Assembly: GCA_965212055.1 (NCBI GenBank)
Contig: OZ243041.1
Location: 484,149 to 548,148, forward strand
From: Fidelibacterota bacterium
GTDB lineage: Bacteria > Fidelibacterota > Marinisomatia > Marinisomatales > Marinisomataceae
Length of the DNA: 64,000 nucleotides
Reading direction: 5' to 3'
Made by a program: the position numbers and the translations under genes. The notes below the pieces were generated by a model. The model was given only the letters and a program-made list of their open reading frames with translations. It ran no database searches and had not been told where the DNA came from. Of the stretch, positions 3,461 through 41,547 are shown piece by piece. Numbering within the stretch: position 1 is the stretch's first letter; every line of letters begins with the position of its first letter.

Positions 3461-3547
3461 GGAGGCGTGGCAGAGCGGTTGAATGCACTGGTCTTGAAAA
3501 CCAGCAAGGGCGCAAGTCCTTCGTAGGTTCGAATCCTACCGCCTCCG
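3461..3547 (+). tRNA. tRNA-Ser (anticodon UGA)
   Basis: Acceptor ggaggcg/cgcctcc. Anticodon stem ctggt/accag with loop CTTGAAA. Long variable arm. T arm gtagg-ttcgaat-cctac. Discriminator G at 3547. Confidence 0.92.
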
Positions 3548-3549
3548 CA

Positions 3550-4962
3550 ATGAATAAACCTATTGTCAGATTTGCTCCTAGCCCAACAGGATATTTGCAT
3601 ATTGGAGGTGCTAGAACTGCTCTTTTTAATTGGTTGTATGCCAAAAAACATAAGGGAACATTTTTATTGCGTATTGAAGATACCGATACAGAACGTTCTG
3701 AAAAAAAATATATTGATCAAATATCCGATGCATTAGAATGGTTAGGATTACCATGGGATGATGAAATTGTATATCAATCTTCTAATCTTGATCGCCATCA
3801 ATCTGTTGTAAACTCAATGCTGGATGACGGGACAGCCTATCGATGTTTCTTAACGAAAGAAGAACTTGATACGCTTCGTACAGAGGCAGGACAAAAAAAA
3901 GCAGTATTTCGTGTTCCAAAAACCTATCGTGATTATACATCAGAACAACAACAAGAATTGATTGATCAAGGCAAACCATTTACTGTGCGATTAAAGATTC
4001 CTGAAGGAACCACAGAATTTGATGATTTGGTGTATGGAAACATTAAGGTAAATAATAGTGATTTAGATGATTTTATTATCGCAAGATCAGATGGGCTACC
4101 TACCTATAATTTTGTAGTGACTATTGATGATTGTGATATGAATATTACCCATGTTATTAGAGGGGATGATCACTTGGCAAATACACCGAAACAAATCCTG
4201 GTTTATCAAGCACTTGGATTCAATGTGCCTACATTTGCCCATTTGCCTATGATTCTAGGATCTGATAAGAAACGATTAAGCAAACGACATACAGCAACCA
4301 ATGTTCAAGAATATCGCGATAAAGGGTATATGCCAGAGGCGATTCTTAATTATCTTTCTTTGTTAGGATGGAATCCAGATTCTGATCAAGAAATTTTTAA
4401 CCTTGATGGTTTAATCGATGGATTTAATCTAGAACAAGTTCAAAAGAAATCTGCAATATTTGACGAGAAAAAATTATTATGGATTTCTGGTCAACATATG
4501 GCAAATGCTAGTATCGATACTACCATTATAGAGCTTGAAAACTTAAAACCAGATTGGGCTACAGGGCAGACAAGTAGTTATAAAAAAGATGTTTTAAAAC
4601 TAACAAAAGAACGATCAAAAACATTGGTAGATTTAATTGAGATTTCAGAAACATTTTTTAGCAGTCAAATTTCTTATGATACAGATGTCAAAGATACAAT
4701 TTGGAATGATTCATCCAAAAAAATTGTAGAGGACTTATTAAATGCATTAACCATTGAAAATAATTGGGATAAAAAAACATTAGAATCTGTTTTTGAAAAT
4801 CTAATGAATCAACATAATCTATCTCTTGGAAAACTTATCCAACCTATTCGATTTGTTCTATCTGGACTTACCTATGGTCCTGGTATTTTTGATACGATGG
4901 TTTTGCTTGGAAAAGAATCGTGTATTAAGCGATTGGCGGCTGGATTAAAGGAATTAAATTGA
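3550..4962 (+). CDS. gltX: glutamate--tRNA ligase
   Basis: VRFAPSPTGYLHIGGARTALFNWL (HIGH motif), KRLSKR (KMSKS-type motif), 470 aa. The ATG lies 2 nt after the tRNA-Ser discriminator base. Confidence 0.95.
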   Translation: MNKPIVRFAPSPTGYLHIGGARTALFNWLYAKKHKGTFLLRIEDTDTERSEKKYIDQISDALEWLGLPWDDEIVYQSSNLDRHQSVVNSMLDDGTAYRCFLTKEELDTLRTEAGQKKAVFRVPKTYRDYTSEQQQELIDQGKPFTVRLKIPEGTTEFDDLVYGNIKVNNSDLDDFIIARSDGLPTYNFVVTIDDCDMNITHVIRGDDHLANTPKQILVYQALGFNVPTFAHLPMILGSDKKRLSKRHTATNVQEYRDKGYMPEAILNYLSLLGWNPDSDQEIFNLDGLIDGFNLEQVQKKSAIFDEKKLLWISGQHMANASIDTTIIELENLKPDWATGQTSSYKKDVLKLTKERSKTLVDLIEISETFFSSQISYDTDVKDTIWNDSSKKIVEDLLNALTIENNWDKKTLESVFENLMNQHNLSLGKLIQPIRFVLSGLTYGPGIFDTMVLLGKESCIKRLAAGLKELN

Positions 4963-7135: not shown

Positions 7136-8029
7136 ATGAATAATAAAAATATATTTTTGGGGATAATTGCTTTCGCTCTTTTTGCTTGTAGCGGAGGAGG
7201 AGATAGTGTAACTGCAACCACAGATGGCGGTGGTGGAGAAACTGGTGGAAATACAGGCGGTACGGCACAACCAGTACCAACCAAAATTTTAACTGAATTA
7301 TTTACATCAACAACTTGTGGTCCTTGTACAGCTCAAAATAATACTCTAAATAAGTACTTAGACCCTACATCATCTACATATGCAAGCGATATTGCAGCTG
7401 AATGGATTGTATTACGTTATCATGTTTGGTGGCCTGCTTCTGGAGATCCTTATTATGATTGGAATCAAAATCCAGTGATTGCGCGTGAAGGATACTATAA
7501 TGTCGGATATGTTCCTCATGCTTTTACACAAGGGATGAATGATTCTGGTTCAGGAGCATCTACATGGAGAGTACATGCAAGACAAGTAGATACTACAACA
7601 GCTATTTCTCCGTTTGATGTTCAGATGAATGTAGCATTAGATGGATATAAGTTAACTGGTACTATTACAGTAACTGCTGCAGGCGATGTAAGAAATCTTG
7701 GATTTAAATACTATATTGCTGTCACACATGATGATTCTCAATATGCTGCACCAAATGGACAAACAGTATTTCATCAAACTTTCATCGATTTCCTCAACTA
7801 TGAAACAACCACTGAAGGAATCATAAGTTGGGGTGAATCTCTTAATTTAAATTCAGGTGAAACCAAGACTACAAATATTGATTGGACGTTAAATAGTAAT
7901 TGGCCAAATGATTCTGGAGTTACTTGGTCTCCAAGTGATTTAAATATTCTTGCGTTTGTTCAATTCGATGGTGGTGGAGAAAATGATAAGAAAATCTTCC
8001 AGGTTGAAGAAATAGATTTTGGTTCATAA
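7136..8029 (+). CDS. lipoprotein with a thioredoxin-like CGPC motif (Omp28-related-like)
   Basis: Lipobox LFACSGGG, G/T-rich linker, then ELFTSTTCGPCTAQN (canonical thioredoxin C-G-P-C). Confidence 0.5.
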   Translation: MNNKNIFLGIIAFALFACSGGGDSVTATTDGGGGETGGNTGGTAQPVPTKILTELFTSTTCGPCTAQNNTLNKYLDPTSSTYASDIAAEWIVLRYHVWWPASGDPYYDWNQNPVIAREGYYNVGYVPHAFTQGMNDSGSGASTWRVHARQVDTTTAISPFDVQMNVALDGYKLTGTITVTAAGDVRNLGFKYYIAVTHDDSQYAAPNGQTVFHQTFIDFLNYETTTEGIISWGESLNLNSGETKTTNIDWTLNSNWPNDSGVTWSPSDLNILAFVQFDGGGENDKKIFQVEEIDFGS

Positions 8030-8049
8030 GTTCTCCTCGTTTTACATAT

Positions 8050-8123
8050 GCGCCCGTAGCTCAATTGGATAGAGCGTCTGGCTACGGACCAGAAGGTTGT
8101 GGGTTCGAGTCCTTCCGGGCGTA
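8050..8123 (+). tRNA. tRNA-Arg (anticodon ACG)
   Basis: Acceptor gcgcccg/cgggcgt (G1-U72 wobble). D arm gctc-aattggata-gagc. Anticodon stem tctgg/ccaga with loop CTACGGA. T arm gtggg-ttcgagt-ccttc has one U-U mismatch and one G-U pair. Confidence 0.85.
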
Positions 8124-8126
8124 CTC

Positions 8127-8600
8127 GTGTCTACTAAAATTCAAATAAATAAAATATCTCATGAAGATTGGATGCATCGTGCATTAAAACTCGCAATGCA
8201 AGCCTTTAATGCAGATGAAGTTCCTGTTGGATGTATCATTGTTCACGATAATAAAATTATTGGACAAGGATATAATCAATGTGAATCTTTAAATGACGCT
8301 ACTGCTCATGCTGAAATGATAGCAATTACTTCAGCCTCATCTACATTAGATAATTGGCGTTTAAATGAATGTGCAATCTATGTGACAAAAGAACCTTGTT
8401 CAATGTGTGCTGGAGCCATTGTAAATAGCCGTATTGATAAACTTTATTTTGGATGTTATGATGAAGAATCAGGCGCATGTGGTTCTAGGTTTGAGATTTG
8501 TGGAGGTTCTACTCCTTCTATTGTGAAGGGAAATATACTTGCCAATGAATCTTTATCTTTAATTCAGGAATATTTTATTAGAAAAAGAAAGGAAAAATAG
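8127..8600 (+). CDS. tadA: tRNA-specific adenosine deaminase
   Basis: SHEDWMHRALKLA..EVPVGCIIV..AHAEM..PCSMCAG (the H-A-E and PC-x-x-C zinc motifs of CDA-fold TadA). The track start 8097 lies inside the tRNA. GTG 8127 is the only canonical in-frame start upstream of the conserved SHE-x-WM block. Confidence 0.85.
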   Translation: MSTKIQINKISHEDWMHRALKLAMQAFNADEVPVGCIIVHDNKIIGQGYNQCESLNDATAHAEMIAITSASSTLDNWRLNECAIYVTKEPCSMCAGAIVNSRIDKLYFGCYDEESGACGSRFEICGGSTPSIVKGNILANESLSLIQEYFIRKRKEK

Positions 8601-9333
8601 CCTTTCTTTCTTTTGGGTAATCATCAAATTGTTGATGATACCATTGATGTCCTTTAATAGCTCTTGGAACTAAGTTTGCCATTGTCCATATCATAAAAGA
8701 TAATCCTGCCAAAGACCAAGTCATTAATGCAAATGCAGTCCATTCTAAGATTTCTCCAAAATAATTGGGATAAGAGATGTATTTGAACAATCCTCCTCTT
8801 GGAATTTGGTATCCTTTATTTTCTGATCGTAATTTTAGGAGAATGGTATCCGATTGCATATTGATTACCATTCCTACAGCAAACAAAATAATTCCTAGAA
8901 TAAAATTCCAGTTGGTAGCATAATCAATTAGGTATGGTTCCATAGAGCCTAAGAAATAACCATTAATAAATCCGTTGATAATATTAAACAACAATGCAAA
9001 TACGGCAATAGAAAGGGGCATTTTTGCTGGATTTTTTTGTCGCATAGGATAAATAATGCTTCGATTAGAATAATGACCCATCCAACAGATAAAAAACACC
9101 CATGTAATCCAACTTTTTTCTTCTAATCCAGTAAGAAAAAAATAAGCAAATGCAGCAGGAGAGATAATTTCCATCACAAACCATCCTAATTTGCTTGGAA
9201 TCATTGGTCCCCAATTTGTATTAGCAAATTTTCCATACGGAGCGGGGATTTTTAAAAGAAGAATGAATGTTACAACTCCCAAGATAATCCAAGGCATCAA
9301 AATCATTTCATAAATTTGTAACATCGCCTCCAA
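8578..9333 (-). CDS. 3-oxo-5-alpha-steroid 4-dehydrogenase (SRD5A)-family membrane reductase
   Basis: Polytopic protein. The C-terminal GGLFKYISYPNYFGEILEWTAFAL matches the steroid 5-alpha-reductase C-terminal domain. The 3' end overlaps tadA by 23 nt (convergent). Confidence 0.75.
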   Translation of the reverse strand: MEAMLQIYEMILMPWIILGVVTFILLLKIPAPYGKFANTNWGPMIPSKLGWFVMEIISPAAFAYFFLTGLEEKSWITWVFFICWMGHYSNRSIIYPMRQKNPAKMPLSIAVFALLFNIINGFINGYFLGSMEPYLIDYATNWNFILGIILFAVGMVINMQSDTILLKLRSENKGYQIPRGGLFKYISYPNYFGEILEWTAFALMTWSLAGLSFMIWTMANLVPRAIKGHQWYHQQFDDYPKERKAIFPFFF

Positions 9334-40804: not shown

Positions 40805-40832
40805 TTTGCGCATAATATATATTATGTATAAT
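40805..40832. other. dif: candidate dif site (XerC/XerD chromosome-dimer resolution site)
   Basis: TTTGCGCATAA TATATA TTATGTATAAT versus E. coli dif GGTGCGCATAA TGTATA TTATGTTAAAT gives 23/28 identical. The spacer and 9/11 of the right arm also match B. subtilis dif. It lies at the gene-orientation switch of the window. Confidence 0.6.
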
Positions 40833-40839
40833 TGATGAG

Positions 40840-41547
40840 ATGAATAAAAATAGACTAGTAAAACAAACAAGATGTGCCCTATTACTCTACATTGTAGCAA
40901 TATTTGTAGCAATGCCCCTTTATGCTGGCGGAACCTATGCTATTAAAGATATTGCTACCTTCTATAATTTCTGTACTAATTTTCTAAGCGATCTTGGAAG
41001 AACTACTAGTCATTCTGGTGATTTAAACTTCTTTTCTAGTTTTTTATTTAATAATGCTATGGTTATTTTCGGAATCTTTTATGGTCGATTTATATACCAT
41101 ATGACAAATTATCTTAATGATATAGATCAAAATATAGCTTCTTTGGCCAAAATTGCATCAATAATCGCCTGTTTTTCTACAATTGGGGTTGCATTAACCC
41201 CCGCAGATGTTGATTCCTTATATCTTGCTCATATCCTGTTTGCTAACAATATTTTCTATTTTGGGTGTTTTGGGACTGCTCTTTTTGGATATTTATTTCT
41301 GAAATCAAATGCAATTGATAATAAATATGGTTGGATACTACTATTTTATTCCTTTGCTACCATTGGTTACATCTGTGTAATGTGGTATGGTCCAAAACCA
41401 TTCTTCGTATTAGCCGATGGATCAATATCGCCATCAGCCCATGGATTAATGGTGCAAGCCTCTGCACAAAAGATCATCTTCTTAATTGGATTCTTCTCGA
41501 ATTGGATGACGGTTAAAGCAATAGGTTTACTTGACAACAAAGTTTAG
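40840..41547 (+). CDS. polytopic membrane protein (possibly DUF998-like)
   Basis: Six or so hydrophobic helices. The FLSDLG motif resembles DUF998 (weak, from memory). The 3' end overlaps leuS by 21 nt (convergent). Confidence 0.4.

Follow-up and report, generated by a model that had tools for sequence, protein, structure and literature searches.

Operons that join transfer RNA (tRNA) genes to a protein gene, leaderless mRNAs and the tRNA punctuation of organelles are already known, each separately. The Escherichia coli thrU-tyrU-glyT-thrT-tufB operon has its promoter upstream of the tRNA genes and a gene of the translation apparatus downstream, and the tRNAs are excised from a joint tRNA-mRNA precursor; tufB lies approximately 100 nucleotides (nt) from the last tRNA and has its own ribosome-binding site. 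In animal mitochondria, tRNAs flank the coding sequences (CDSs) directly, and the mRNA ends are set where RNase P and RNase Z cut the tRNAs out. In human mitochondrial mRNAs, at most a few nucleotides precede the start codon, and translation proceeds without a Shine-Dalgarno (SD) sequence, according to Montoya et al. (1981) as cited in PMC4633059; for plant mitochondria, t-elements have been described (PMC1920247). Bacterial leaderless mRNAs (in Actinobacteria, in Deinococcus and, for lambda cI, in E. coli) have an AUG or GUG start near the 5' end and no SD sequence. Some bacteria, namely mycobacteria, need no more than a 5'-terminal AUG or GUG to translate a leaderless mRNA (PMC4633059), and the leaderless starts of P. 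acnes are 68% AUG and 29% GUG (PMC3848588). Here we describe a locus resembling these systems in the Fidelibacterota bacterium assembly GCA_965212055.1, where the gene of tRNA-Arg(ACG) lies 3 nt upstream of tadA, the gene of a predicted tRNA adenosine-34 deaminase. By the window we mean the whole stretch of DNA that was analysed, 64,000 nt in length (contig OZ243041.1, positions 484,149 to 548,148 of the forward strand).

In the window, tRNA-Arg(ACG) (8050..8123) is followed on the same, forward strand by a 3-nt spacer, CTC (8124..8126, from the discriminator base to the start codon), and then by tadA (8127..8600), which begins with GTG, comprises 157 codons and ends with a TAG stop at 8598-8600. 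We think it fairly probable that this is a tRNA-punctuated, mitochondria-like operon, in which the 3' processing of the tRNA would give a near-leaderless tadA mRNA. Unlike the tufB operon, the lineage of the window has spacers of 1-3 nt without an SD sequence, and tadA is the modification enzyme of the very tRNA that precedes it. The locus differs from mitochondria in that it belongs to a free-living bacterium whose promoter and terminator organization is ordinary and whose SD usage is partial, in that only some of the genes are punctuated, and in that in its clade (the loci with a TadA identity of at least 65% to the window's) 20-62 nt with a promoter-like element lie between the preceding CDS and the tRNA. 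E. coli, Staphylococcus aureus and Bacillus subtilis have a comparable pair, with an enzyme of the same family and the same anticodon loop (U33-A34-C35-G36) in tRNA-Arg(ACG), but their tadA is not adjacent to its tRNA. The nearest relatives of the locus are metagenome-assembled genomes (MAGs) of Candidatus Neomarinimicrobiota/Marinimicrobia (SAR406) and Tara Oceans contigs. ARAGORN finds four tRNA genes in the window, tRNA-Arg(ACG) among them, and the G+C content is approximately 34%.

The tRNA gene is called both by ARAGORN (8050..8124) and by Rfam RF00005 (8050..8123), the latter as a full-model match of 62.8 bits (E=1.2e-12; gathering score 29). An earlier reading of this DNA from its letters (the sequence-only reading) had placed the end of the tRNA at 8123 and had proposed tRNA software as a test. 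Both programs accept the tRNA, and the Rfam match and the discriminator A at 8123 agree with the proposed end. CCA is not encoded, and G1 and U72 form a wobble pair. The anticodon occupies 8084-8086 in a 7-nt loop (CUACGGA) with U33 present, and A34, the position targeted by TadA, is at 8084. The same reading had noted a U-U mismatch in the T-stem, and GTGGG/CCTTC indeed contains U50.U64 (8100/8114) beside a G.U pair. The stem (GUGGG/CCUUC) is fixed in every clade member, while positions 50 and 64 are paired in all other tadA-linked tRNA-Arg genes. Across the clade loci, TadA identity falls to 65%, while the tRNA varies at no more than two positions, both in the T-loop. The gene therefore appears to be under purifying selection and not to be a pseudogene, despite the mismatch. 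Given this invariance, U50.U64 itself shows no sign of decay and would be a derived feature, selected or at least tolerated. The affinity for EF-Tu is tuned by the T-stem pairs 49-65, 50-64 and 51-63, and such tuning is one possible reason for the mismatch.

From GTG 8127, the open reading frame (ORF) next to the tRNA encodes 157 amino acids that match Pfam PF14437 (MafB19-deam, 2.7e-38) and PF00383 (dCMP_cyt_deam_1, 1.4e-31), in line with a cytidine/deoxycytidylate-deaminase fold. The NCBIfam TadA equivalog NF008113 scores 148.6 bits, which is 1.4 under its cut-off of 150, with profile positions 3-154 covered; the runner-up NCBIfam family, RibD, reaches only 49 bits. Residues 9-156 match residues 6-156 of E. 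coli TadA (1z3a, E=4.8e-36), the C-terminal helix included, and TadA of S. aureus (2b3j) and of Aquifex (1wwr) also match. The segment KISHEDWM aligns to EFSHEYWM, the extreme N-terminus of the solved E. coli TadA. The alignment shows little or no variation in the HAE zinc/catalytic motif (residues 61-63) and in PCxxC (residues 90-94). The naming of this ORF as TadA in the sequence-only reading is borne out by the Pfam and E. coli matches, and we regard the product as TadA-like, a predicted tRNA adenosine-34 deaminase.

We compared the junction between the two genes in 80 species-level genomes, 80 metagenome contigs and further contigs with specific homologues. The same tRNA stands at a fixed 3-nt distance from tadA in 16 of the 18 evaluable clade loci. 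There are 14 distinct junction haplotypes, all of which read CCTTCCGGGCGTA, then C-N-N, then (A/G)TG TCT, with the start 3 nt after GGGCGTA; the spacer is always C-initial (CTC, CTA, CAA or CAC). In two loci (L168/L169) the spacer is 7 nt. Outside the clade, a long ORF starts within 8 nt of the tRNA in 4 of 69 distinct tRNA junctions, counted by a method that favours short distances. The identity of 16 of 18 clade loci against this figure suggests that the 3-nt junction is beyond chance. The start codon at +4 is GTG in the subclade of the window (TadA at least 82% identical) and ATG in more distant members (65-75%), nine loci having ATG in place of GTG. Since a start codon is thus kept at one nucleotide position through the exchange of GTG and ATG, GTG 8127 is, as judged from these alignments, the true initiation site of tadA.

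Upstream of the pair, 16 of 18 distinct upstream sequences have in common the arrangement CAGGTTGAAG-N17-TAA(G/C)TT-N8-9-TTTACATAT, which ends at the tRNA; TTTACATAT is likewise invariant in 16 of the 18. In the window, this conserved module (8004..8032, forward strand) consists of a -35 element TTGAAG (8004-8009), a 17-nt spacer and a -10 element TAAGTT (8027-8032), and the conserved TTTACATAT (8041..8049, forward strand) lies directly 5' of tRNA-Arg, where it is presumed to be a transcribed leader and a substrate of RNase P. The module occurs in two contexts, either in non-coding DNA after the gltX stop or within the 3' end of a lipoprotein ORF. In the window, a lipoprotein-like ORF without a family match (7136..8029) runs into it and ends there, its final ten codons and its TAA stop (8027-8029) being written across the module. 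We read TTGAAG-17-TAAGTT as the putative promoter of the tRNA-Arg/tadA unit, with a leader of approximately 10 nt. A scan of the window finds no promoter-like or terminator-like site between tRNA-Arg and tadA and no promoter inside the tRNA, in agreement with the earlier claim that 3 nt leave no room for a promoter or an SD sequence before tadA. The window's tRNA-Leu(CAA), by contrast, precedes no CDS, and a strong 12-bp terminator lies 4 nt behind it. From the conserved upstream module, and from the lack of space for a promoter or terminator in the 3-nt spacer, we strongly infer that tRNA-Arg(ACG) and tadA are co-transcribed. A terminator-like hairpin (8584..8609, forward strand; 9-bp stem with 3 G-C pairs, weak T tail) spans the tadA stop. 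The 3' end of tadA overlaps a convergent 3-oxo-5-alpha-steroid 4-dehydrogenase-like gene (8578..9333, minus strand) by 23 nt, and the weak hairpin falls in this overlap. We also considered a helix between leader and start codon as a regulator and rejected it: ACAU of TTTACATAT pairs with (G/A)UGU over 4 bp, with a fold z of -0.52, and covariation is not assessable here because U pairs with both G and A.

What would happen to such a transcript? All 21 distinct tRNA junction sequences of the clade, which represent six tRNA species, lack an encoded CCA, and in each of them the discriminator is followed directly by a C, usually as CA (window positions 1776, 3548, 8124 and 63396). The C is also found in 33 of 46 CCA-less tRNA genes of the other sampled lineages, and it may mark the 3' processing site. 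CCA-less precursors in bacteria are cut at the discriminator by RNase Z, after which CCA is added, as worked out in B. subtilis. The start codon lies within approximately 3 nt of the predicted tRNA 3' cut for tadA (3 nt), for gltX (1-2 nt) and for a gene of the GNAT family (2 nt), and the 5' coding region of tadA is A/U-rich and essentially unstructured (centroid -0.6 kcal/mol).

In a tRNA-punctuated operon, one primary transcript would contain the leader of approximately 10 nt, tRNA-Arg, CUC and the tadA ORF from GUG 8127. RNase P would remove the leader, and an endonucleolytic 3' cut at the discriminator, or 1 nt after it, would free the tRNA for CCA addition by the RNase Z route. The same cut would yield a tadA mRNA with a 5' phosphate and a 2-3-nt leader, beginning C-U-C-G-U-G or U-C-G-U-G, which would then be translated by SD-independent, leaderless-type initiation. 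A classical leaderless mRNA initiates at the start codon and carries a 5' triphosphate, while the tadA mRNA proposed here would carry a 5' monophosphate at a processed end, 0-3 nt before the start codon. TadA synthesis would be hard-wired to the transcription of its substrate tRNA, and the weak leaderless GUG start plausibly limits the output of TadA despite a promoter of tRNA strength.

Several points weigh against such an operon. The consensus promoter scan does not flag TTGAAG-17-TAAGTT, whose -10 element matches at 3 of 6 positions; with the scan silent, it is conservation that supports the promoter call. The invariant C after the discriminator makes the cut site, and hence the leader length, uncertain by 1 nt. 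SD-like motifs precede 14 of the 44 window genes against a background of 9.5%, and with approximately one-third of the genes carrying them, SD-independent initiation is not the default in this genome. E. coli translates leaderless mRNAs poorly when the start codon is GUG or when additional nucleotides stand 5' of it. Finally, if the tRNA matured by exonucleolytic trimming after a downstream RNase E cut, one mRNA would be destroyed for each tRNA made.

Is the tight junction peculiar to tadA? In the window, tRNA-Ser(UGA) (3461..3547, forward strand; ARAGORN) ends with its discriminator G at 3547; CA (3548-3549) and then gltX (3550..4962, forward strand) come next, so that the ATG of gltX stands 2 nt past the discriminator. 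The gltX ORF (470 amino acids) starts with MNKPIVRFAPSPTGYLHIGG, the N-terminus of glutamyl-tRNA synthetase (GluRS), and has the HIGH motif from residue 16; its homologues in relatives carry the Pfam domain tRNA-synt_1c. In relatives, the spacer between tRNA-Ser(UGA) and gltX is 2, 2, 2 and 1 nt, and that between tRNA-Arg(ACG) and tadA in the same comparison is 3, 3, 3 and 7 nt. In relatives, tRNA-Ser(GGA) lies 2 nt before a GNAT gene, and the spacer is 7 nt where a DUF6122 gene follows tRNA-Ser(GGA). Since gltX and the GNAT gene also abut tRNAs, a near-zero spacer is a lineage-wide way of placing a CDS after a tRNA and not specific to tadA. The less rearranged relatives (L165-L169) share the gene order YceI (minus strand), tRNA-Ser(UGA), gltX, tRNA-Arg(ACG), tadA and the steroid dehydrogenase gene (minus strand), and the promoter-like module lies in the approximately 60 nt that separate gltX from tRNA-Arg(ACG). 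In the subclade of the window, genes for AhpC, DUF6029 and a lipoprotein are inserted between gltX and the module. This comparison points to an ancestral operon tRNA-Ser(UGA)-gltX-tRNA-Arg(ACG)-tadA in which both protein genes abutted a tRNA and whose distal half is the present tRNA-Arg/tadA unit.

Some further observations concern these neighbours. A TTGCGA-17-TATAAA sequence noticed by eye before tRNA-Ser(UGA) is left as weak, the consensus scan being silent there. In the region 1677-1790 of the window, tRNA-Ser(GGA) begins 8 nt past the stop of the preceding ORF. In two relatives (L163/L164; L163 3723-3815), tRNA-Ser(GGA) is followed after 2 nt by a gene for a 149-amino-acid GNAT acetyltransferase, which is absent from the window; the window DNA after tRNA-Ser(GGA) was considered as a decayed copy and rejected, its resemblance to the L163 gene being limited to approximately 20 nt.

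Beyond the clade, tRNA-Arg(ACG) lies on the same strand and at most 600 nt upstream of tadA in 11 of the 80 species-level genomes, which belong to at least six phyla: Marinimicrobia (L001, L002, L021), Ignavibacteria (L028), an unclassified MAG (L022), Elusimicrobia (L051), Omnitrophica (L061), Clostridia (L067) and Planctomycetota (L068, L071, L075). The spacers in these looser pairs range from approximately 8 to approximately 355 nt. Three metagenome loci add to the pairs (L135, with approximately 8 nt, L118 and L146). The sequence-only reading had called for a survey of the adjacency in related genomes, and the pair proves to be conserved in the clade and to recur in other phyla. A homologous tRNA-Arg(UCG) is found upstream of tadA in two genomes (L014, 1325-1399; L033, 2869-2943) and three metagenome loci (L120, L138, L139). 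The UCG-bearing genes occur in Ignavibacteria-like genomes and recall the transition from ACG to UCG in Mollicutes. In L014, tRNA-Arg(UCG) is followed by a second tRNA 3' half (1400-1475; AAGGGTTGAGGGTTC...AATCCTTCCGGGCGTAC), interrupted in the T-loop, which looks like a leftover attachment-site duplication of an integrated element. For a genome of a few megabases and one tRNA species, we infer that tRNA-Arg(ACG) would occupy this position by chance in approximately 1 genome in 10,000. Against that figure, 11 of 80 genomes indicate a non-random linkage, brought about by ancient synteny or by selection. Adjacency does not always mean co-transcription, since in L118 a terminator-like hairpin separates tRNA-Arg from tadA.

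The synteny option can be taken further, to the view that the abutment has no function for tadA, the tight spacing being a by-product of streamlining and the cross-phylum linkage being inherited in an old cluster of Ser and Arg tRNA genes. We consider this a serious possibility, if short of a probable one. The non-cognate pairs of tRNA-Ser with gltX, GNAT and DUF6122 genes are equally tight, and the genome is densely packed, with genes that overlap or almost touch. Among the 80 species-level genomes, 18 from several phyla have tRNA-Ser(CGA) and/or tRNA-Ser(GGA) at most 700 nt downstream of tadA (e.g., L004, L018, L022, L025, L026, L053, L068, L071, L072, L074 and L078), and in Clostridia tadA stands behind Ser-Ser-Arg-Arg tRNAs; tadA thus seems often to reside in a Ser/Arg tRNA cluster. 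Most other Marinimicrobia (TadA below 60% identity) do not have the adjacency. Two loci also show a natural uncoupling of the pair with tadA retained: in L086 (636-1500) and L091 (380-1100), two small ORFs, for a 143-amino-acid zinc-ribbon-like protein and a 67-amino-acid membrane protein, are inserted between tRNA-Arg(ACG) and tadA. There, tadA starts at the equivalent GTG TC(A/T), has its own 5' region of approximately 35 nt and has an N-terminus longer by 4 codons (MSVKINTENQLG...). On the other side, the occurrence of the ACG pair in 11 genomes, and of its UCG counterpart in two more, far exceeds the chance estimate, and its retention over such distances suggests selection. The junction in the clade, moreover, is invariant to the nucleotide while TadA has diverged to 65% identity.

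The main rival to a near-leaderless mRNA generated by tRNA processing concerns the fate of each transcript. It holds that tadA is translated from unprocessed precursors only, or that tRNA maturation and tadA expression are mutually exclusive, and that the junction is a partitioning or attenuating device. Maturation of the E. coli type, in which RNase E cuts downstream and exonucleases trim back, would have this effect. With only 3 nt between the acceptor stem and the start codon, a 30S footprint there would collide with the folded tRNA, and the predicted 4-bp pairing of leader and start codon would occlude the start in the precursor. However, CCA-less genes normally take the RNase Z route, which spares the trailer. 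The essential and moderately abundant GluRS shares the architecture, which argues for a productive route. The constraint of the spacer to 1-3 nt fits a 5' end at the start codon and is unexpected if the trailer is degraded. On balance, we find an either/or fate unlikely.

The tRNA-punctuated operon also depends on where translation of tadA begins. The TadA frame is open from 8073 and offers three canonical starts: TTG 8097 (inside the tRNA), GTG 8127 and ATG 8172. The sequence-only reading had taken GTG 8127 as the sole canonical start upstream of the SHEDWM block; GTG 8127 holds as the start, but not as the only candidate, TTG 8097 being in frame as well. Gene callers are divided in the relatives, some proteins being called from the +4 start (P0001-P0016) and others from the internal Met (P0019-P0053). 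It might be supposed, with the latter, that tadA is translated from ATG 8172 and that 8124-8171 is an A-rich, 48-nt 5' untranslated region with ordinary leadered, SD-poor initiation. ATG is the commoner start codon, the internal Met is the choice in many relatives, e.g., P0019 and P0025 (145 amino acids), and the stretch is A/U-rich and unstructured. Yet S-H-E-D-W upstream of this Met is conserved as protein across phyla and lines up with the N-terminal end of E. coli TadA; the codon of the Ser preceding H-E-D-W shows synonymous variation (TCT, TCG, TCC or TCA); and between the start codon and the H-E-x-W-M block there are 12 or 13 codons, an in-frame indel of one whole codon in a peptide that varies freely. 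A start codon, GTG or ATG, stands at +4 in 14 of 14 haplotypes, and the two loci whose proteins are called at the internal Met (L081/L082) carry the same GTG at +4 in their DNA. With SHEDWM conserved as protein and the +4 start kept, homologues do not point to ATG 8172, which the sequence-only reading had named as an outcome that would speak against it. We regard initiation there as very improbable. The codon-position bias in the N-terminal extension is weak (variable sites [9,5,9] and [5,5,8]) because the N-terminal peptide itself evolves fast, and the argument for translation of the extension draws instead on the start codon together with the H-E-x-W-M block and the in-frame indel. A start at TTG 8097, overlapping the tRNA gene by 27 nt, can safely be set aside although it is in frame, with the frame open from 8073, and although the catalogue protein P0061 is called with a tRNA-encoded N-terminus (GSSPSGRT), since P0061 reads the tRNA in another frame than the window would, the 7-nt spacer of L168/L169 shifts the frame and so breaks any in-frame conservation of a start inside the tRNA, tadA of L086/L091 begins with the equivalent GTG TC(A/T) although no tRNA lies directly upstream, and ATG replaces GTG at +4 in nine loci.

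It is tempting to go beyond a tRNA-punctuated tadA operon and to suppose that the tadA message cannot do without pre-tRNA-Arg(ACG) as its 5' module, the folded tRNA blocking initiation until 3' cleavage, with punctuation a regular device for gltX and tadA and with feedback between TadA and the precursor conceivable. We consider this wider proposal doubtful. If true, each message of the enzyme would be born together with one molecule of its substrate tRNA, and TadA, by binding the anticodon arm while the precursor is still unprocessed, could in turn influence its processing or translation. It would also mean that a free-living bacterium uses tRNA punctuation of the mitochondrial style routinely for genes of the translation apparatus (gltX, tadA).

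Elsewhere in the window, a 28-nt TTTGCGCATAATATATATTATGTATAAT at 40805-40832, which we take to resemble the XerC/D dif site of E. coli, lies exactly where GC skew and gene orientation change sign (at approximately 40 kb), and the replication terminus is probably at this dif-like site. TATAAT, 7 nt and ATG before an ORF at 40840 were considered as a case of classical leaderless transcription; we dropped this candidate, as it is part of the dif-like recombination site at the switch in GC skew. A few genes downstream of tadA, relatives of the window have dnaX-ybaB-recR (L163 14853-17259; also L165 and L168), which recalls what we take to be the B. subtilis order tadA-scr-dnaX-yaaK-recR.

In the literature, tadA of S. 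pyogenes is described in a SPy_0208-tadA operon (PMC11472039), and a study of the co-evolution of tadA and tRNA-Arg in Mollicutes does not discuss gene order (PMC3711424). A full-text search found no account of the tRNA-Arg/tadA linkage, an absence that is no proof of novelty, and the linkage of the genes for this enzyme and its single substrate, tRNA-Arg(ACG), is apparently unreported. For tRNA-punctuated leaderless mRNAs, the literature search found organellar and archaeal precedents only and none in bacteria.

The locus has a practical side: gene callers mis-start at the internal Met or inside the tRNA, and annotation pipelines should permit starts that abut a tRNA. The patchy linkage across at least six phyla gives a handle on the co-evolution of tadA and tRNA-Arg(ACG), including the lineages with a linked UCG tRNA. 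The tadA junction would be a natural bacterial case of mRNA 5' ends that are made by tRNA excision and are nearly leaderless, an arrangement regarded as organellar. As such, it bears on SD-less and leaderless initiation outside Actinobacteria, and on how streamlined ocean bacteria drop intergenic signals.

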